Assembly (NCBI RefSeq): GCF_016026235.1
Contig: NZ_CP065613.1
Source: Escherichia coli
GTDB lineage: Bacteria > Pseudomonadota > Gammaproteobacteria > Enterobacterales > Enterobacteriaceae
DNA length: 64,000 bases
Reading direction: 5' to 3' (one strand)
The notes under the pieces were generated by a model that saw only the letters and a list, made by a program, of their open reading frames with translations, was not told the origin of the DNA and searched no databases. This document shows positions 1,425-38,503 of the stretch, piece after piece (position 1 is the first letter of the stretch; every line of letters starts with the position of its first letter). The translations under genes and the position numbers were made by a program.

Positions 1425-1452
1425 AACCCCGCTTCGGCGGGGTTTTTTGTTT
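1425..1452 (+). terminator. Rho-independent terminator of the tRNA operon
   Basis: GC-rich hairpin AACCCCGC-TTCG-GCGGGGTT followed by TTTTGTTTTC. Confidence 0.8.
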
Positions 1453-3045: not shown

Positions 3046-3469
3046 GCAAAATGCTCCGGTTTCATGTCATCAAAATGATGACGTAATTAAGCATTGATAA
3101 TTGAGATCCCTCTCCCTGACAGGATGATTACATAAATAATAGTGACAAAAATAAATTATTTATTTATCCAGAAAATGAATTGGAAAATCAGGAGAGCGTT
3201 TTCAATCCTACCTCTGGCGCAGTTGATATGTAAGGCAGGTTTATTATATCGCGTTGATTATTGATGCTTTTTTTAGTTTTAACGGCAATTAATATATGTG
3301 TTATTAATTGAATGAATTTTATCATTCATAATAAGTATGTGTAGGATCAAGCTCAGGTTAAATATTCACTCAGGAAGTTATTACTCAGGAAGCAAAGAGG
3401 ATTACAGAATTATCTCATAACAAGTGTTAAGGGATGTTATTTCCCGATTCTCTGTGGCATAATAAACGG

Positions 3470-15092: not shown

Positions 15093-17255
15093 ATGGACGT
15101 TTCTTACCTGCTCGACAGCCTTAATGACAAACAGCGCGAAGCGGTGGCCGCGCCACGCAGCAACCTTCTGGTGCTGGCGGGCGCGGGCAGTGGTAAGACG
15201 CGCGTACTGGTGCATCGTATCGCCTGGCTGATGAGCGTGGAAAACTGCTCGCCATACTCGATTATGGCTGTGACGTTTACCAACAAAGCGGCGGCGGAGA
15301 TGCGTCATCGTATCGGGCAACTGATGGGCACCAGCCAGGGCGGCATGTGGGTCGGCACCTTCCACGGGCTGGCGCACCGTTTGCTGCGTGCGCACCATAT
15401 GGACGCCAATCTACCGCAGGATTTCCAGATCCTCGACAGTGAAGACCAGCTACGCCTGCTTAAGCGTCTGATCAAAGCCATGAACCTCGACGAGAAGCAG
15501 TGGCCGCCGCGCCAGGCAATGTGGTACATCAACAGCCAGAAAGATGAAGGCCTGCGTCCGCATCATATTCAAAGCTACGGTAATCCGGTGGAGCAGACCT
15601 GGCAGAAGGTGTATCAGGCGTATCAGGAAGCGTGTGACCGCGCGGGCCTGGTGGACTTCGCCGAGCTGCTGCTGCGCGCTCACGAACTGTGGCTTAACAA
15701 GCCGCATATCCTACAACACTACCGCGAACGTTTTACCAATATCCTGGTGGACGAATTCCAGGATACCAACAACATTCAGTACGCGTGGATCCGCCTGCTG
15801 GCGGGCGACACCGGCAAAGTGATGATCGTCGGTGATGACGACCAGTCAATCTACGGCTGGCGTGGGGCGCAGGTGGAGAATATTCAGCGTTTCCTTAATG
15901 ATTTCCCCGGTGCCGAAACTATTCGTCTGGAGCAAAACTACCGCTCTACCAGCAATATTCTGAGCGCCGCTAACGCCCTGATTGAAAACAACAACGGGCG
16001 TCTGGGTAAAAAACTGTGGACCGATGGCGCGGACGGTGAGCCTATTTCCCTCTATTGCGCTTTTAACGAACTCGATGAAGCGCGTTTTGTGGTTAACCGC
16101 ATCAAAACCTGGCAGGACAACGGCGGGGCGCTTGCCGAGTGCGCCATTCTCTACCGCAGTAACGCCCAGTCGCGTGTGCTGGAAGAAGCACTGTTGCAGG
16201 CGAGTATGCCGTACCGTATTTACGGCGGGATGCGCTTCTTCGAACGCCAGGAAATCAAAGATGCGCTCTCGTATCTGCGCCTGATTGCCAACCGTAACGA
16301 CGACGCGGCCTTTGAGCGTGTGGTGAATACGCCAACGCGGGGTATTGGTGACCGGACGCTGGACGTGGTACGTCAGACATCGCGCGATCGCCAGTTAACA
16401 CTCTGGCAGGCATGTCGTGAACTGTTGCAGGAAAAAGCCCTCGCCGGACGTGCTGCCAGCGCCTTACAGCGGTTTATGGAACTGATCGACGCCTTAGCGC
16501 AGGAAACTGCCGATATGCCGCTGCATGTACAGACTGACCGGGTAATTAAAGACTCCGGCCTGCGTACCATGTACGAGCAGGAGAAGGGCGAAAAAGGTCA
16601 GACGCGTATCGAAAACTTAGAGGAACTGGTGACGGCAACGCGCCAGTTCAGCTACAACGAAGAAGACGAAGATTTAATGCCGCTGCAGGCGTTCCTATCC
16701 CATGCGGCGCTGGAAGCAGGCGAAGGGCAGGCGGATACCTGGCAGGATGCGGTACAACTGATGACCATGCACTCGGCGAAAGGTCTGGAGTTCCCGCAGG
16801 TGTTTATCGTCGGTATGGAAGAGGGCATGTTCCCAAGCCAGATGTCGCTGGATGAAGGCGGGCGTCTGGAAGAAGAACGCCGTCTGGCCTACGTTGGCGT
16901 AACCCGCGCGATGCAGAAACTGACGCTGACCTACGCGGAAACTCGCCGTCTGTATGGCAAAGAGGTTTACCATCGCCCGTCGCGCTTTATTGGCGAGCTG
17001 CCGGAAGAGTGTGTGGAAGAGGTGCGCCTGCGCGCCACGGTAAGCCGCCCGGTCAGCCATCAGCGGATGGGTACGCCGATGGTCGAGAACGACAGCGGCT
17101 ACAAGCTCGGCCAGCGTGTACGCCACGCTAAGTTTGGTGAAGGCACCATCGTCAATATGGAAGTCAGCGGTGAACATAGCCGTTTGCAGGTGGCATTCCA
17201 GGGCCAGGGAATCAAATGGCTGGTGGCAGCTTACGCCCGGCTGGAGTCGGTGTAA
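15093..17255 (+). CDS. uvrD: DNA helicase II (720 aa from ATG 15093; ORF track over-extends upstream to 14904)
   Basis: MDVSYLLDSLNDKQREAVAAP...; Walker A GAGSGKT; UvrD/Rep helicase motifs. Confidence 0.95.
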   Translation: MDVSYLLDSLNDKQREAVAAPRSNLLVLAGAGSGKTRVLVHRIAWLMSVENCSPYSIMAVTFTNKAAAEMRHRIGQLMGTSQGGMWVGTFHGLAHRLLRAHHMDANLPQDFQILDSEDQLRLLKRLIKAMNLDEKQWPPRQAMWYINSQKDEGLRPHHIQSYGNPVEQTWQKVYQAYQEACDRAGLVDFAELLLRAHELWLNKPHILQHYRERFTNILVDEFQDTNNIQYAWIRLLAGDTGKVMIVGDDDQSIYGWRGAQVENIQRFLNDFPGAETIRLEQNYRSTSNILSAANALIENNNGRLGKKLWTDGADGEPISLYCAFNELDEARFVVNRIKTWQDNGGALAECAILYRSNAQSRVLEEALLQASMPYRIYGGMRFFERQEIKDALSYLRLIANRNDDAAFERVVNTPTRGIGDRTLDVVRQTSRDRQLTLWQACRELLQEKALAGRAASALQRFMELIDALAQETADMPLHVQTDRVIKDSGLRTMYEQEKGEKGQTRIENLEELVTATRQFSYNEEDEDLMPLQAFLSHAALEAGEGQADTWQDAVQLMTMHSAKGLEFPQVFIVGMEEGMFPSQMSLDEGGRLEEERRLAYVGVTRAMQKLTLTYAETRRLYGKEVYHRPSRFIGELPEECVEEVRLRATVSRPVSHQRMGTPMVENDSGYKLGQRVRHAKFGEGTIVNMEVSGEHSRLQVAFQGQGIKWLVAAYARLESV

Positions 17256-17330
17256 CGTTGCCGGATGCGGTGCTGCGCACCTTATTTGGCCTAAAAAATC
17301 ATTCATATTCAATAAATTGCAACGTCATGT

Positions 17331-17364
17331 ATGCCGGATAGGGCGTTTACGCCGCATCCGGCAT
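17331..17364. repeat. REP element
   Basis: ATGCCGGATAGGGCGTTTACGCCGCATCCGGCAT palindromic unit downstream of uvrD. Confidence 0.7.
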
Positions 17365-17401
17365 CTGCGCCATCTTCAGTATCTGACACAAAACTATCGT
17401 T

Positions 17402-17833
17402 TTAACCTTTCCGCTCGACGGAAATCATGGTGACAAAAGGATAGCGTTGCCACGGGATTGCCCCGCCTTTCATATACATATGTGAAATCGTACCATCAAG
17501 ATAAAGCAGCTGCTCAACGTTCAGTTTCGCTTTGGCATAACAGGCAAAATCATAAAAATTTGTCGCCTGCTGGCTCAACAAAAACACGGCATTCCCATGT
17601 TTATTAATCCCAACACCGTTACGAATTTTACGTGAGGCGACGTTGGGATGAATACGCGGATTAATTACACCGTTTTCCATCAACATTGGCCCTGACTGCA
17701 CCGCAAACTGAATATCTTTACTGGCTTTAAAAGCATCTAGACGAACGATGCCGACTTTATCTCCCGCGACATAAAACACGCCGCCAGGACGGATAAAGAA
17801 ATTCCCTTCACCTGAAGCGAGATTTAACGCCAC
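17402..17833 (-). pseudogene. yigE: yigE (DUF2233) 3' portion, separated from its 5' portion by IS4
   Basis: 143 aa ORF fragment abutting the IS4 left end; together with 19269-19604 it reconstitutes a ~254 aa protein. Confidence 0.75.
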
Positions 17834-19268
17834 CTTCTGCTGTAATGCCGATCAGTTAAGGATCAGTTGACCGATCCAGTGGCTGTGTAAGAATCCGGAA
17901 ACGCTCACTTGTTTCCGGATTTTTTTATGCACATTGGACAGGCTCTTGATCTGGTATCCCGTTACGATTCTCTGCGTAACCCACTGACTTCTCTGGGGGA
18001 TTACCTCGACCCCGAACTCATCTCTCGTTGCCTTGCCGAATCAGGTACTGTAACGCTACGCAAGCGCCGTCTTCCCCTCGAAATGATGGTCTGGTGTATT
18101 GTTGGCATGGCGCTTGAGCGTAAAGAACCTCTTCACCAGATTGTGAATCGCCTGGACATCATGCTGCCGGGCAATCGCCCCTTCGTTGCCCCCAGTGCCG
18201 TTATTCAGGCCCGCCAGCGCCTGGGAAGTGAGGCTGTCCGCCGCGTGTTCACGAAAACAGCGCAGCTCTGGCATAACGCCACGCCGCATCCGCACTGGTG
18301 CGGCCTGACCCTGCTGGCCATCGATGGTGTGTTCTGGCGCACACCGGATACACCAGAGAACGATGCAGCCTTCCCCCGCCAGACACATGCCGGGAACCCG
18401 GCGCTCTACCCGCAGGTCAAAATGGTCTGCCAGATGGAACTGACCAGCCATCTGCTGACGGCTGCAGCCTTCGGCACGATGAAGAACAGCGAAAATGAGC
18501 TTGCTGAGCAACTTATAGAACAAACCGGCGATAACACTCTGACGTTAATGGATAAAGGTTATTACTCACTGGGACTGTTAAATGCCTGGAGCCTGGCGGG
18601 AGAACACCGCCACTGGATGATACCTCTCAGAAAGGGAGCGCAATATGAAGAGCTCAGAAAACTGGGTAAAGGCGATCATCTGGTGAAGCTGAAAACCAGC
18701 CCGCAGGCACGAAAAAAGTGGCCGGGACTGGGAAATGAAGTGACAGCCCGCCTGCTGACCGTGACGCGCAAAGGAAAAGTCTGCCATCTGCTGACGTCGA
18801 TGACGGACGCCATGCGCTTCCCCGGAGGAGAAATGGCGGATCTGTACAGTCATCGCTGGGAAATCGAACTGGGATACAGGGAGATAAAACAGACGATGCA
18901 ACTGAGCAGGCTGACGCTGAGAAGTAAAAAGCCGGAGCTTGTGGAGCAAGAGCTGTGGGGTGTCTTACTGGCTTATAATCTGGTGAGATATCAGATGATT
19001 AAAATGGCGGAACATCTGAAAGGTTACTGGCCGAATCAACTGAGTTTCTCAGAATCATGCGGAATGGTGATGAGAATGCTGATGACATTGCAGGGCGCTT
19101 CACCGGGACGTATACCGGAGCTGATGCGCGATCTTGCAAGTATGGGACAACTTGTGAAATTACCGACGAGAAGGGGAAGGGCCTTCCCGAGAGTGGTAAA
19201 GGAGAGGCCCTGGAAATACCCCACAGCCCCGAAAAAGAGCCAGTCAGTTGCTTAACTGACTGGCATTA
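17834..19268 (+). mobile_element. IS4 insertion sequence with 12 bp target-site duplication CACCTTCTGCTG
   Basis: Terminal inverted repeats TAATGCCGATCAGTTAAG (left) and CTTAACTGACTGGCATTA (right, 16/18 match); identical 12 bp direct repeats at 17822-17833 and 19269-19280. Confidence 0.9.
17927..19255 (+). CDS. insG: IS4 DDE transposase (442 aa from ATG 17927)
   Basis: Product [30 protein letters not shown]... recognised as IS4-family transposase; inside the IR-bounded element. Confidence 0.88.
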
Positions 19269-19604
19269 CACCTTCTGCTGACCGTTTTCGATGTACAAAC
19301 CGAGCGGCGCATAGCTTTCATCATAGATGCCGCCGTTCATCGCCATCTGCACCTGACCCTGACTATTCATATCCGCCAGCAGAGCATGTAACGTTCCCCA
19401 CGCTTCGCCATTAGCTTTTTGCCAGTACATTTTCACCCGCTCTGTTTGAGGATTAACGGTATACGCCTGTACGGTCAGCGTCGGATCTGAGAGTGCGCAA
19501 TCATCAGCGGCAACAGCAAACAAGGGAAGTAAGGTGAGGGTGAGAAAAATCTGTTTGAGATTCAAGGTGATCATTCCTTTACCAATGAGTAGCCGATGCG
19601 CCAT
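19269..19604 (-). pseudogene. yigE: yigE 5' portion (signal peptide and N-terminal domain), truncated by IS4
   Basis: 112 aa ORF with N-terminal signal peptide (LTLTLLPLFAVAADD) that runs into the IS4 right end. Confidence 0.75.
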
Positions 19605-19973
19605 TATAGGTCCTGGATGTTGGATTTTTTTATCCTGTTAGCGACCTTGACGAGTACCAAAAAGCGCGAAGTTCAACTATTGTTCTGTGGTGTTCTGTTG
19701 CGTGTTGACGGCAAAATTTTGCTGGCGTAACATGCGCGCACGATCACTCTAAGAGGACATTCGCCTTGGACACACCCAGTAGATACTGGCTCACTATCCT
19801 GTCATCCAGGATCAACTCCTAAGGCTATCCCTTTTTGCTGATAGCCTTAGCGGTTGTCAGCGACCTCAATTTTTCCCGTCGCGCTGAGTCAGGCTGTTTA
19901 ATGGTCTGAAACCCAATTTGTTTCTGTGTGCCCACCGAACTGTCCGATATTTTAAGCATTGGGAGTCCCGGTC

Positions 19974-20924
19974 ATGCTGAGCGCATTTCAACTGGAAAAT
20001 AACCGACTGACCCGGCTGGAAGTCGAAGAGTCACAACCCCTTGTAAATGCAGTATGGATTGATCTTGTCGAACCGGACGACGACGAGCGACTGCGCGTAC
20101 AATCTGAACTTGGCCAGAGCCTGGCAACCCGCCCGGAACTGGAAGACATCGAAGCATCGGCACGTTTCTTTGAAGACGACGACGGCCTGCATATTCACTC
20201 CTTCTTCTTCTTTGAAGATGCGGAAGATCACGCCGGTAACTCCACTGTGGCATTTACCATCCGTGATGGTCGTCTGTTTACTCTGCGTGAGCGTGAACTG
20301 CCCGCTTTTCGTCTGTATCGTATGCGTGCCCGTAGCCAGTCGATGGTAGACGGTAACGCCTACGAGCTGCTGCTGGATCTGTTCGAAACCAAAATCGAAC
20401 AGTTGGCAGATGAAATTGAAAATATCTATAGCGACCTGGAGCAGTTGAGCCGGGTGATTATGGAAGGGCATCAGGGCGATGAGTACGACGAGGCGCTCTC
20501 CACTCTGGCGGAACTGGAAGATATCGGCTGGAAAGTTCGCCTGTGTCTGATGGATACCCAGCGCGCGCTCAACTTCCTGGTGCGTAAAGCGCGTTTACCG
20601 GGTGGGCAACTGGAGCAGGCGCGTGAAATCCTGCGAGATATCGAATCCCTGCTGCCGCATAACGAATCCCTGTTCCAGAAGGTGAACTTCCTGATGCAGG
20701 CGGCGATGGGTTTTATCAACATCGAGCAGAACCGCATCATCAAAATCTTCTCGGTGGTATCCGTGGTATTCCTGCCGCCGACGCTCGTTGCTTCCAGCTA
20801 TGGGATGAACTTTGAGTTTATGCCAGAACTGAAGTGGAGTTTCGGCTACCCAGGCGCGATTATCTTTATGATCCTCGCGGGCCTGGCACCGTATCTGTAC
20901 TTTAAGCGCAAGAACTGGCTGTAA
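19974..20924 (+). CDS. corA: Mg2+/Co2+ transport protein CorA (316 aa from ATG 19974)
   Basis: [17 protein letters not shown]...; C-terminal [11 protein letters not shown] signature (GMN motif) and two TM helices. Confidence 0.95.
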
Positions 20925-20977
20925 TATGAGTGCCGGATAAAGCTATTTTTTTATCCGGCTTATTTCTAAAAATTGTC

Positions 20978-22308: not shown

Positions 22309-22515
22309 TTGCCTTGGTTATATTTAAGCTCAATATCAATTCGAGAACAAATGCTAGGGTAAAAAAATATTTAAAAAAGAAGTACACTTCACATTTTTTC
22401 ATTACATCTCTGAAGAGAACCTCGTTAATGATTGGTCTTGCTCATTGTTAATAACAAAATGTTGAATTTACCGATTAGGAAACTTTTTCCTACGCGGATT
22501 GCCTCCAGTTCTGGC

Positions 22516-22635
22516 ATGAACTTTGAGTTTATGCCAGAACTGAAGTGGGGCTTCGGCTACCCTGGCGCGATTATCTTTATGATCCTCGCGGGCCTGACAC
22601 CGTATCTGTACTTTAAGCGTAAGAACTGGCTGTAA
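22516..22635 (+). pseudogene. corA: Duplicated corA 3' end (last ~39 codons plus stop), ~96% identical to 20805-20924
   Basis: Direct alignment: 115/120 identical; weaker homology continues ~20 bp upstream. ORF track reports a 67 aa ORF ending in the CorA C-terminus. Confidence 0.85.
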
Positions 22636-22659
22636 CTATACGATGTCGCTGTGAGTAAG

Positions 22660-35734: not shown

Positions 35735-35775
35735 TGGCCGGACAAGGCGTTCACGCCGCATCCGGCATGAACAAC
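35735..35775. repeat. REP element
   Basis: GGCCGGACAAGGCGTTCACGCCGCATCCGGCATGAACAA downstream of metE. Confidence 0.65.
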
Positions 35776-35913
35776 GCGCACTTTGCCAATAATCTGATGG
35801 CTTCCATCACCGGAAGCCATTTTGCTATCTGCGCCCGTTCAGATACAGAAATAACCGAATCATTTTTACGCAAAATATAATCCTGAGCGATTTGTTCAGT
35901 AATCAACGCTACG

Positions 35914-36189
35914 TTATTTATTCTCACTTTTCACGAAATTGTATCCCTTTTCAGTAACGTGGTAGTGAGGCATAGACTTATGTCCGCTATCCTCAATAAT
36001 AACCAAACCCTCGTTAGCTAATTTGTTAACAATGTTAACAACATTACCGAATCCTGGAATTTGCCTTATGGATAGTGTGCGATCGAGATTCATCCAGTTC
36101 CAGTTTATATCTTTCTCAGCCATAACTTTCAGTACGTTAATTTCAGTTTCAGTTATCATAGTCAAGTGCATCCTGGTGGTATAAGTCAT
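35914..36189 (-). CDS. Small hypothetical protein, candidate immunity protein for the upstream Hcp-ET toxin (up to 91 aa; true start may be an internal Met)
   Basis: ORF immediately downstream of, and overlapping, the 3' end of the toxin-domain ORF; the usual toxin-immunity gene arrangement. No homology check possible here. Confidence 0.45.
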   Translation of the reverse strand: MTYTTRMHLTMITETEINVLKVMAEKDINWNWMNLDRTLSIRQIPGFGNVVNIVNKLANEGLVIIEDSGHKSMPHYHVTEKGYNFVKSENK

Positions 36190-37296
36190 TAAGTTCTCCC
36201 TTAAGTTTATAATCTTCTAGAGTAGCAGTATGCGTATGATTCCAGAGTGCATAGCCTGCGTCACCATCAGGTTGTCCTGTTTCCCAACCAAGATTACAGT
36301 AACGCTGATATTCCCGACACTCATGAGTATAGAAGTTAAGATCTACTTGTTCTGGGGGGATTTTTCCTTTCTCAATGTCTTTCAGTCTATTGATCATCAC
36401 TTCATTTACAGGGTCATGACCAAATCTGGCTATGTGTTTTTCAACAATAGCGATACCTTCCCTGTTGATTGTTACGCCATCTGTCGTCAGATTTTCTATT
36501 GGACCACCGGCAAGGTCGGGATTAAATGGTCTTCCTGATACTGCTCCTCTGGCTCCGAAATGCTCAAGTGATTCCAAATCAGGGAGTCTCATTCTCCCCA
36601 GAACTGCTCCAGCAACTATTGAAGCACCAGCGATGAGTAACCCTTTGTTATCCATAAATTGATCGTAACCAGCAGGTGCATCTCCCCCCAACTTGTCTGC
36701 TGTTTCCCTGAATCCTTCGATATTCCCATTGTATATGCCGCCAGCAGCAAGCAGTCTGCCAACCGCTTTACTATTAAGTGTTTTGAACCATTACCAGCTT
36801 TAGTTTTTGGCCGTGGTATAAACAGACGGTTGTAGTTATCGGGAAATGCCAAATAACTAAATTCAGTATTAGCAATCAGATGCCTGGAGAGTATATATTC
36901 ATAACTGACAGTGATGGCTTCTGTATCCAGATTGTTCTCAGTAAACAGGTGATTGATTGCTGATAAGAGCGCGCCGCGGAGTTGAATGTTGTAATATTTC
37001 TCCCATCGACCAAACCTATTGATCCGATAGAAGTCAAACTCCATGAACAACTGCTCGTTATTGTTAATAGCGTTAATAAGTAACGGGGAGCTTTTGTCAA
37101 TCAATTTACAGAAACTAAGGCCATGCAATTATGACCCTTTGCCTGTATTCGTAATACTATTAGAGAGCGAGAACGCGAAGATTTCATCATCATGGCCAAT
37201 CTGCCAGCGATTACCTATTGATGCGCTCGTTCCACAACGAGAGGAAATACATCCTTGTTGTTCTCCGGTTATGGTCAGGTAAATAATATCACTCAT
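36149..37296 (-). pseudogene. hcp: T6SS Hcp with C-terminal extended toxin domain (Hcp-ET type), broken by an in-frame TAA and a frameshift
   Basis: Minus-strand ATG at 37296 encodes MSDIIYLTITGEQQGCISSRCGTSASIGNRWQIGHDDEIFAFSLSNSITNTGKGS*, an Hcp N-terminal signature; same frame continues after the TAA (37129-37131) with ...KLIDKSSPLLINAINNNEQLFMEFDFYRINRFGRWEKYY... (Hcp core); a frame change near 36745 joins it to a ~180 aa C-terminal domain. Confidence 0.7.
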
Positions 37297-37690
37297 CCTT
37301 GAAAAACCTTTTGTTAATTCTTTTGTGAAAGAGAAATAGTATTGTTGTTTTTTTTTACCTTTATTTACGCCTAAAAGTGATGAACTAAAATGTGAAAAAC
37401 AAAATGTTTCACTTTAATATCTTTTTATCAGGAAGGTCTGAGATGATTTATAATTAATGTGAATGTGTTGATAATAATTAATGTTTGTTTGTGAATGGGA
37501 GTTGATGGTAAATCTCTAAGGTGTCTTCCATTGAAGAGACTCATTTATGACTATGACTTGCCGACTTTTTTAAGGTCAAATAGCGGAGTCGTAATCTCCA
37601 ATCAATTCATACTGATTATTTTTTGGGGGACAGAGATGGCAGCAAAACGCACTCGTTCACTCACCATCTCAAATATAGACTAAGAGGAAA

Positions 37691-38503
37691 CTAACTCCGC
37701 TTCCCACCATACTGCTTAAACCATTCCAGCATACGCTGCCAGCCATCTTTCGCAGATTCGGCATGATAGCTCGGGCGATAATCAGCGTTGAATGCATGCC
37801 CGGCATCCGGGTACACGATAATCTCTGCTTTCGCATTAGCAGCCCGCAGCGCCTGGCGCATGGTTTCAACGCTCTCCTGCGGAATACTGTTATCCAGACC
37901 GCCATATAAGCCGAGAACCGGCGCGTTAAGATCGGTTGCGATATCAACAGGTTGTTTCGGTGAATTCAACGACTTGTCGCCCGTCAGTTTGCCGTACCAC
38001 GCCACTGCGGCTTTTAGCTGTGGATTATGCGCGGCATACAGCCAGGTGATACGTCCACCCCAGCAGAATCCGGTGATCATTAAACGATGAACATCGCCGC
38101 CGTTGCGGGAAGCCCAACTGGCGACATGATCGAGATCGGCCAGCACCTGCGAGTCAGGCACTTTTGCTACCAGACCGCTAAGCAACGTGGGGATATCGGC
38201 AAAATCATTCGGATCGCCTTCGCGGAAGTAAAGTTCAGGTGCGATAGCCAGATACCCCTCCAGCGCCAGACGGCGACAAATGTCGCGGATATGTTCATGC
38301 ACGCCAAAAATTTCCTGCACTACAATGACCACTGGCAGTGGGCCATCGCTTTGCTTTGGTCTGGCATGGTAAGCAGGCATGTTATCCCCTTGTGAAGGGA
38401 TAGAGGTGAAGCCCGCCACAATCGCGTCGTCCGGGGTCTGAACGATGGTCGAAGCGAGAGGCGATGCAGCAGGTGCAAATCCAGATTGTTGTGTTGTTGC
38501 CAT
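37691..38503 (-). CDS. ysgA: Dienelactone hydrolase-family protein (271 aa from ATG 38503; ORF track extends to 38569)
   Basis: Alpha/beta hydrolase with GFCWGG nucleophile motif; good SD (GGAGAA) before the 38503 start. Confidence 0.88.
   Translation of the reverse strand: MATTQQSGFAPAASPLASTIVQTPDDAIVAGFTSIPSQGDNMPAYHARPKQSDGPLPVVIVVQEIFGVHEHIRDICRRLALEGYLAIAPELYFREGDPNDFADIPTLLSGLVAKVPDSQVLADLDHVASWASRNGGDVHRLMITGFCWGGRITWLYAAHNPQLKAAVAWYGKLTGDKSLNSPKQPVDIATDLNAPVLGLYGGLDNSIPQESVETMRQALRAANAKAEIIVYPDAGHAFNADYRPSYHAESAKDGWQRMLEWFKQYGGKRS

Follow-up and report, generated by a model that had tools for sequence, protein, structure and literature searches.

Organization of the yigE locus

The yigE gene of the Escherichia coli strain analysed here lies on the minus strand between uvrD (plus strand, ending at 17255) and corA (plus strand, starting at 19959), with its ATG at 19602-19604 and its stop codon at 17402-17404. 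All coordinates refer to the window, i.e., the whole 64-kb stretch of DNA that was analysed. The gene is interrupted by a complete IS4 of exactly 1426 bp (17843-19268, ends read in the window sequence). The initial annotation delimited the element at 1435 bp and suspected that its ends were a few bp off; the suspicion was justified, and the length is corrected to the canonical 1426 bp. The features of the region (17402-19604) are listed below in order of position.

17402..17842, minus strand: yigE 3' fragment, consisting of the left-duplication copy of codons 109-112, then codons 113-254 and the stop codon
17831..17842, no strand: left copy of the 12-bp target-site duplication CACCTTCTGCTG, yigE codons 109-112 (QQKV)
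17843..19268, plus strand: complete IS4, identified by its ends and length, by a difference of 6 nt from the annotated MG1655 IS4 and by 100% identical copies in seven E. coli records
17843..17860, plus strand: left terminal inverted repeat (IRL) TAATGCCGATCAGTTAAG, matching the right repeat at 16 of 18 positions
17867..17894, plus strand: promoter-like site ahead of the transposase gene (TTGACC, 16 nt, TG-AAGAAT), consensus match only
17889..17924, plus strand: 15-bp stem-loop followed by a U-run, the extended form of which pairs the transposase ATG (17927)
17927..19255, plus strand: IS4 transposase gene (insG type), intact, 442 aa plus stop from ATG, with Pfam domains and the YREK motif
19239..19264, minus strand: terminator-like hairpin of 11 pairs followed by TCTTTTT, formed by the right terminal repeat and an internal inverted copy of it, pattern match only
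19251..19268, plus strand: right terminal inverted repeat (IRR) CTTAACTGACTGGCATTA; on the minus strand its three final bases give the TAA that ends the yigE frame
19269..19280, no strand: right copy of the 12-bp target-site duplication CACCTTCTGCTG, directly adjoining IRR
19269..19604, minus strand: yigE 5' fragment, codons 1-112, including an N-terminal hydrophobic, signal-like segment

The terminal inverted repeats are 18 bp long, imperfect and begin with TAATGCC, and the same ends were found at all 13 comparison loci. Read inward, IRR is TAATGCCAGTCAGTTAAG, which gives the 16/18 matches with IRL. The duplicated sequence CACCTTCTGCTG directly adjoins both ends of IS4 with 0 bases of extension on either side, and it is absent from the rest of the 64-kb window. 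An exact 12-mer is expected at a fixed position by chance with a probability of 4^-12 (about 6e-8). The duplication of exactly 12 bp is inside the 11-13 bp range of IS4, and duplications of 11, 12 and 13 bp were found at other IS4 sites. The identical 12-bp repeats described in the initial annotation were thus found again on re-inspection, as were the 18-bp terminal repeats and the intact 442-aa transposase.

Misplacement of a repeated IS4 copy inside yigE during assembly can be practically discounted. IS elements often cause misjoins, and draft assemblies break inside the yigE-borne IS4, but a misjoin would not yield an exact 12-bp duplication beside canonical IS ends, and the junctions are shared by 15 genomes that were finished independently.

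Transposase and putative regulatory structures of the element

The transposase gene is read here from the ATG at 17927, whereas PGAP places the start at a TTG at 17909, giving a product of 448 aa. Two Pfam domains, Nterm_IS4 (E 3e-33) and DDE_Tnp_1 (E 8e-32), cover residues 18-109 and 126-352, respectively, and the match to the latter extends over profile positions 3-200 of 200. The signature Y-(2)-R-(3)-E-(6)-K, located in region C1, is found at residues 307-321 and is the defining signature of the IS4 family (PMC2266710).

The site at 17867-17894 is a candidate promoter of the transposase gene. Folding of 17843-17945 gave a minimum free energy of -38.9 kcal/mol (z = -4.67), and none of 200 shuffled sequences folded as well. 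The left stem-loop (17889-17924) probably blocks read-through transcription from outside the element and hides the transposase start codon. The hairpin at 19239-19264 faces transcripts arriving from the yigE promoter. Judged from their sequence, the hairpins may keep outside transcription from entering the transposase gene and bring the truncated yigE message to an end.

The element appears to be functional. Its activity is suggested by the intact open reading frame, by 100%-identical copies at several loci and plasmids, and by the empty site in a sister genome described below.

Identity of the element and related systems

The element was compared with the feature 'insertion sequence:IS4' of E. 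coli K-12 MG1655 (NC_000913.3, 4502090-4503515). The alignment is ungapped and contains 6 mismatches in 1426 nt (99.6% identity); the transposases differ at 4 residues of 442 aa. The near-identity over the full 1426 bp to the IS4 annotated in MG1655 identifies the element as IS4. The MG1655 copy (insG) has the same length, the same ends and a 12-bp duplication but a different place, since it lies in the yjgZ-nanX intergenic region and not in yigE. The initial annotation stated that yigE is intact in MG1655 and that IS4 is elsewhere in that genome. The comparison fits both statements, yigE being b4482 and the located IS4 copy lying between yjgZ and nanX.

Seven records of the E. coli collection contain copies with 100% identity to the IS4 allele of the window; these records represent the chromosome and/or a plasmid of about 290 kb of the strains CFSAN029787, RMDEC332, RMDEC364 and VL46. 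CFSAN029787 is taken here to be an enteroinvasive E. coli (EIEC), and the other strains with a plasmid of about 290 kb are presumably EIEC as well. According to Hawkey et al. 2020 (PMC7373316), Shigella and EIEC have an IS4 subpopulation in common, for which the invasion plasmid pINV is a possible vehicle.

Among related elements, cut-and-paste transposition via hairpin intermediates is established for IS10 and IS50, the insertion sequences of Tn10 and Tn5, respectively, which are the IS4-family members with a studied mechanism. By homology, cut-and-paste transposition is assumed for IS4. IS10 and IS50 resemble IS4 in having a single-ORF DDE transposase with the YREK motif, a target duplication approximately one helical turn long and a preference for symmetric targets (PMC2266710). 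Their duplication is 9 bp, in contrast to 11-13 bp for IS4. Unlike IS10 and IS50, IS4 has the Nterm_IS4 domain and a target with A/T-run arms approximately 16-21 bp from each cut.

Disruption of yigE

Removal of IS4 and one copy of the repeat, i.e., joining 17402-17842 to 19281-19604, gives 765 nt that contain an uninterrupted yigE open reading frame of 254 aa. The claim that IS4 splits yigE is confirmed by this restoration, together with the difference of 6/1426 nt from the MG1655 IS4. The reconstructed YigE differs from K-12 YigE at 7 of 254 residues and matches Pfam PF09992 (NAGPA) at residues 84-237 with 67.9 bits against a cut-off of 25. K-12 YigE is annotated as a DUF2233 protein and the PGAP label is phosphodiester glycosidase family protein; the disrupted gene encodes a DUF2233 protein, as originally proposed. 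YigE is a predicted exported member of the NAGPA/DUF2233 phosphodiester-glycosidase family without an established function. A literature search for the function of yigE or DUF2233 returned unrelated matches only ('Yige' is also a personal name), and no paper joining yigE and IS4 was found.

The break at codon 112 cuts the NAGPA domain, which is the only recognised domain of YigE. In the 5' fragment, translation stops at a TAA supplied by the IS at 19266-19268, where the final three bases of IS4 are read on the opposite strand. The 3' fragment is without the native start or promoter, and in other genomes this piece is annotated by PGAP as 'phosphodiester glycosidase family protein, incomplete, missing N-terminus'. 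Fragments of 112 aa and 143 aa were given in the initial annotation. The 112-aa open reading frame stands, but the 143-aa piece is a mechanical open reading frame with a GTG start that re-uses codon 112. The sum of the two is 255 and not 254 because codon 112 is copied by the target duplication. The yigE::IS4 allele of the window should be a null allele, since the 3' part of the gene is left without a promoter or start codon. Given the gene order, with uvrD transcribed towards yigE and corA away from it, no polar effect on the neighbours is expected.

Comparison with E. coli FDAARGOS_943

The closest complete genome is that of E. coli FDAARGOS_943, with which the entire window aligns colinearly (99.85-100% identity). 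This genome has an empty site and an intact yigE of 765 nt. The window without IS4 and one repeat differs from it by 2 nt in 3162 around the site. The empty site in a near-identical genome indicates that the insertion is recent in this lineage and took place after a very recent common ancestor. This comparison and the perfect duplication uphold the view of a recent, unrearranged transposition. Import of yigE::IS4 by recombination was considered and ruled out, since the flanks equal those of the empty-site FDAARGOS_943 within 2 nt in 3162. An IS1A adjoins ysgA in FDAARGOS_943 and is absent from the window (window position about 37697-37704).

FDAARGOS_943 carries a C-to-T change inside the 12-bp target that is unique to it (1/5426 genomes).

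Target preference of IS4

IS4 ends were collected from 18 species-representative loci, 83 metagenome contigs and other E. coli loci. The scan of species representatives for the IS4 left end gave 16 matches in Kosakonia oryziphila, 1 in Photorhabdus khanii and 1 in a Methylobacterium contig, with no E. coli record among these matches. A consensus and a weight matrix were derived from 71 distinct IS4 half-sites, with yigE excluded. Relative to the IS boundary, the half-sites show A at -21 to -16 (61/71 at -18), a C-rich stretch at -14 to -9, G at -4 and -3, and G at -1 in 56/71. The derived full target is roughly palindromic and consists of an A-run, 3-4 bases, the duplicated core C.CC....GG.G, 3-4 bases and a T-run. 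Many IS4 target sites resemble terminator hairpins.

The window with the IS removed (62.6 kb) was scanned with the weight matrix at staggers of 11-13 bp, giving 187,446 candidates. The yigE site scored 19.8 bits (9.7 + 10.1) at a 12-bp stagger and ranked second of 187,446. The first rank was held by a terminator-like, unoccupied site at 1429-1440. The yigE target deviates from the consensus in its left arm, which reads TTTAA and not AAAAA. Three other E. coli IS4 sites (ycaL/aroA, a prophage and bamD/raiA) have the same arms and duplications of 12-13 bp, and the core of the prophage site, CACCTTCGGGTG, is closely like the yigE core.

The IS4 target consensus of Mayaux et al. from 1984 is reportedly AAAN20TTT. 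The yigE site, TAA-N20-TTT, matches this consensus at 5 of 6 positions. The consensus derived here agrees with that pattern, and also with the arm specificity of IS4-subgroup targets, which De Palmenaer et al. described as 'spectacular' (PMC2266710).

The C-to-T change of FDAARGOS_943 lowers the score of the site from 19.8 to 15.0 bits. It has been considered that yigE codons 109-112 are a previously unreported hot spot used in both orientations and that this change is not a coincidence, being either the footprint of an IS4 visit and excision or a weaker target that escapes insertion. Taken as a whole, this proposition is unlikely. If it were true, single-base target polymorphisms would measurably shape the landing of IS4 in natural populations.

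Recurrence of insertion at the same 12 bp

IS4 was detected in 2686 of the 5426 complete E. coli genomes; the number of matching places per genome had a median of 1 and reached 32. The 12-bp yigE target is occupied by IS4 in 35 of the 5426 genomes, and the empty 40-bp target was found at >=80% coverage in 5256. The insertion has the same orientation as in the window in 15 genomes (both junctions) and the opposite orientation in 20. The description of the allele as a strain-specific knockout is therefore valid relative to FDAARGOS_943 and K-12 only, because the 35 genomes carry IS4 at the same point in both orientations. The yigE site accounts for 35 of about 5478 IS4 places in the collection (partial matches counted too), which makes yigE a moderate hot spot and not the main one. 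None of the 83 metagenome contigs in which the IS4 left end was detected has the yigE junction.

Eleven of the 15 same-orientation loci were read, and nine of them have the identical position with CACCTTCTGCTG on both sides. The right-hand junction of IAI39 has been lost by rearrangement, approximately 255 kb having since been inverted between IS4 copies, and VL40 contains 110 bp extra at the left junction, including an inverted remnant of an IS4 end. Two of the 20 opposite-orientation loci were read (RMDEC465 and GPT21-003_1), and both have the same 12-bp duplication. Public yigE::IS4 alleles with the insertion point of the window include those of VR50, IAI39, EECO1006, FDAARGOS_497 and VL40, whereas those of RMDEC465, SCU-172 and USVAST219 are in the opposite orientation. 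In PGAP annotation, such alleles appear as two partial pseudogenes of a 'phosphodiester glycosidase family protein' with an IS4 transposase in between, and an identical truncated 112-aa product has been called on at least 13 public contigs.

The public alleles differ from the window by 8-23 of 441 nt in the yigE flank and by 1-11 nt in the IS copy. Among the occupied genomes, the IS copies are 0-11 of 1426 nt apart and the yigE flanks up to 23 of 441 nt. The IS4 copies of EECO1006, FDAARGOS_497 and VR50 are identical, with flanks 13-22 nt apart. The gene content around the occupied loci also varies: a SAM-hydrolase gene is present or absent beside uvrD, and the gene after corA is yigF in some genomes and a DUF943 gene in others.

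The occurrence of both orientations at one target shows that the insertions do not derive from one event. A single old insertion, passed on by vertical inheritance or by homologous recombination between lineages without any hot spot, is accordingly very improbable. Such an origin would account for the one position common to all 15 same-orientation genomes and the duplication common to the loci read, for the identical flanks of IAI39, CE-O153H30 and PEC403, and for the identical match statistics of six genomes typified by FDAARGOS_497. It is contradicted by the 20 genomes with the opposite orientation at the same target, by identical IS copies in yigE alleles that are 3-5% divergent, and by the empty site of FDAARGOS_943, the flanks of which are essentially identical up to the target and leave no imported tract. 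Gene conversion among IS4 copies could be an alternative cause of IS copies that are more alike than their flanks. The occupied genomes are independent hits on a hot spot, with the reservation that many of the 35 may be clonal relatives. The use of both orientations fits the symmetric target.

Selection for the loss of yigE, for example in invasive or host-restricted lineages, has also been weighed as the cause of recurrence in place of target preference. The gene has been knocked out repeatedly, the occupied isolate AF3 has a second IS (IS1) in yigE, and the IS4 allele of the window equals copies on plasmids of about 290 kb of human isolates such as CFSAN029787. Furthermore, IS4 expansion has been tied to genome decay in Shigella and EIEC (Hawkey et al. 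2020, PMC7373316). However, selection would be expected to scatter the insertions, and all 35 are on the same 12 bp of a 765-bp gene, a site that was independently predicted to be the second-best IS4 target in 62.6 kb. The target region is intact in at least 5256 of 5426 genomes, the occupied genomes are from several niches (birds, swine, poultry, blood, urine and stool), and the supplementary files of the Shigella IS study (PMC7373316) do not mention yigE. As the main cause, selection is improbable, and it is possible as a contributor. Target preference, and not selection, appears to drive the recurrence.

Proposed explanation

The locus is, with high confidence, the product of a recent IS4 transposition into yigE codons 109-112 that truncates YigE, at a preferred target that has been hit independently in other lineages. 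A complete IS4 moved recently into yigE, where staggered cuts 12 bp apart duplicated CACCTTCTGCTG. Translation of YigE then ends after residue 112 at the TAA contributed by the IS, and the terminator-like hairpin just inside the right end of IS4 probably stops the yigE transcript. The fit of the yigE site to the preferred target in both arms would lead to independent hits across E. coli lineages in either orientation.

IS4, the way it transposes and its strong choice of sites have all been described before, and public genomes already contain this allele in annotated form. The sole addition to this knowledge is that yigE codons 109-112 are a hot spot which IS4 hits repeatedly in either orientation and for which the target consensus accounts.

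Significance

The insertion is a real and ordinary event, and its biological weight is small. A clean null allele is recorded for yigE, a conserved E. coli gene. That at least 35 finished genomes, drawn from many hosts, carry the insertion indicates that this gene can be dispensed with in nature. The yigE::IS4 allele is a useful lineage marker, as it is present in the window and not in the near-identical FDAARGOS_943. Strains can have identical IS junctions without having inherited them from a common ancestor. Ancestral-state reconstruction based on IS elements treats re-insertion at the same site as implausible (PMC7373316). IS-based typing and ancestral-state reconstruction would be misled at IS4 hot spots such as yigE.

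Target-site polymorphism and predicted IS4 targets

The pairwise comparison around the yigE site revealed only two differences in 3162 nt between the window and FDAARGOS_943, the nearest complete E. coli genome, in which the site is empty. One of the two differences lies inside the 12-bp IS4 target.

Target SNP: window 17833 and 19271 (base 3 of each duplication copy); FDAARGOS_943, NZ_CP065615.1, ~3588725
Predicted IS4 target: window 1429-1440, terminator-like CCGCTTCGGCGG with a flanking T-run

The window carries C and FDAARGOS_943 carries T at this position, so that residue 112 is V and M, respectively. The T variant was found in FDAARGOS_943 alone (1/5426 genomes); with T, the IS4 target is predicted to score 15.0 bits, compared with 19.8 bits for C. 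The location of the SNP inside the target may be a chance coincidence, the probability of which is ~1% at the SNP density observed. The top predicted IS4 target of the window by weight-matrix score (22.6 bits) is located at 1429-1440, and it is empty of IS4 in the window.

Atypical yigE::IS4 loci

Two other E. coli yigE::IS4 loci have an atypical structure. In VL40 (locus L004), 110 additional bp (3201-3310) separate the left duplication copy from the IRL of the yigE IS4; the right end of IS4, in inverted orientation, accounts for the initial 52 bp, and other DNA for the remaining 58 bp. This structure suggests either two hits on the site or a rearrangement between two IS4 copies. In IAI39 (locus L002), the yigE::IS4 junctions are ~255 kb apart (record positions 3076495 and 3332132), and the IS4 right end instead adjoins a terminator beside ygcG, an arrangement that fits an inversion via recombination between two IS4 copies.

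Other features of the window

The uvrD-yigE spacer (window 17256-17401) contains REP-like palindromes (GCCGGATG...CATCCGGC). At this position, many other E. coli genomes contain a 903-bp gene of the SAM hydrolase/SAM-dependent halogenase family. The 3' end of corA is duplicated, with a 141-bp copy (92.9% identity) ~1.7 kb downstream of corA.

corA 3'-end copies: window 20788-20927 and 22499-22639

A DUF943 gene and a YPO3983/DUF3289 gene are present between these copies, whereas K-12 contains yigF-yigG at the corresponding position. The DUF943/DUF3289 stretch resembles an alternative cassette that was integrated at the corA end.

Between ysgA and metE (window ~35750-37300), a degraded orphan tssD (Hcp) gene is followed by a small "colicin" open reading frame and two tiny hypothetical open reading frames, as assigned from the annotation of the colinear FDAARGOS_943 genome. 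The region is possibly a remnant of type VI secretion effector/immunity genes. Beside ysgA, window ~37697-37704 is an empty site at which FDAARGOS_943 contains IS1A (768 bp, alignment overlap of 8 bp), and this is a second IS polymorphism dividing the two near-identical genomes.

IS4 outside Escherichia

The exact 30-nt left end of E. coli IS4 was detected on 16 contigs of Kosakonia oryziphila REICA_142 (L015-L030), a plant-associated enterobacterium. These left ends are located mostly at contig ends, a pattern that indicates a recent expansion of IS4 in K. oryziphila, outside Escherichia.
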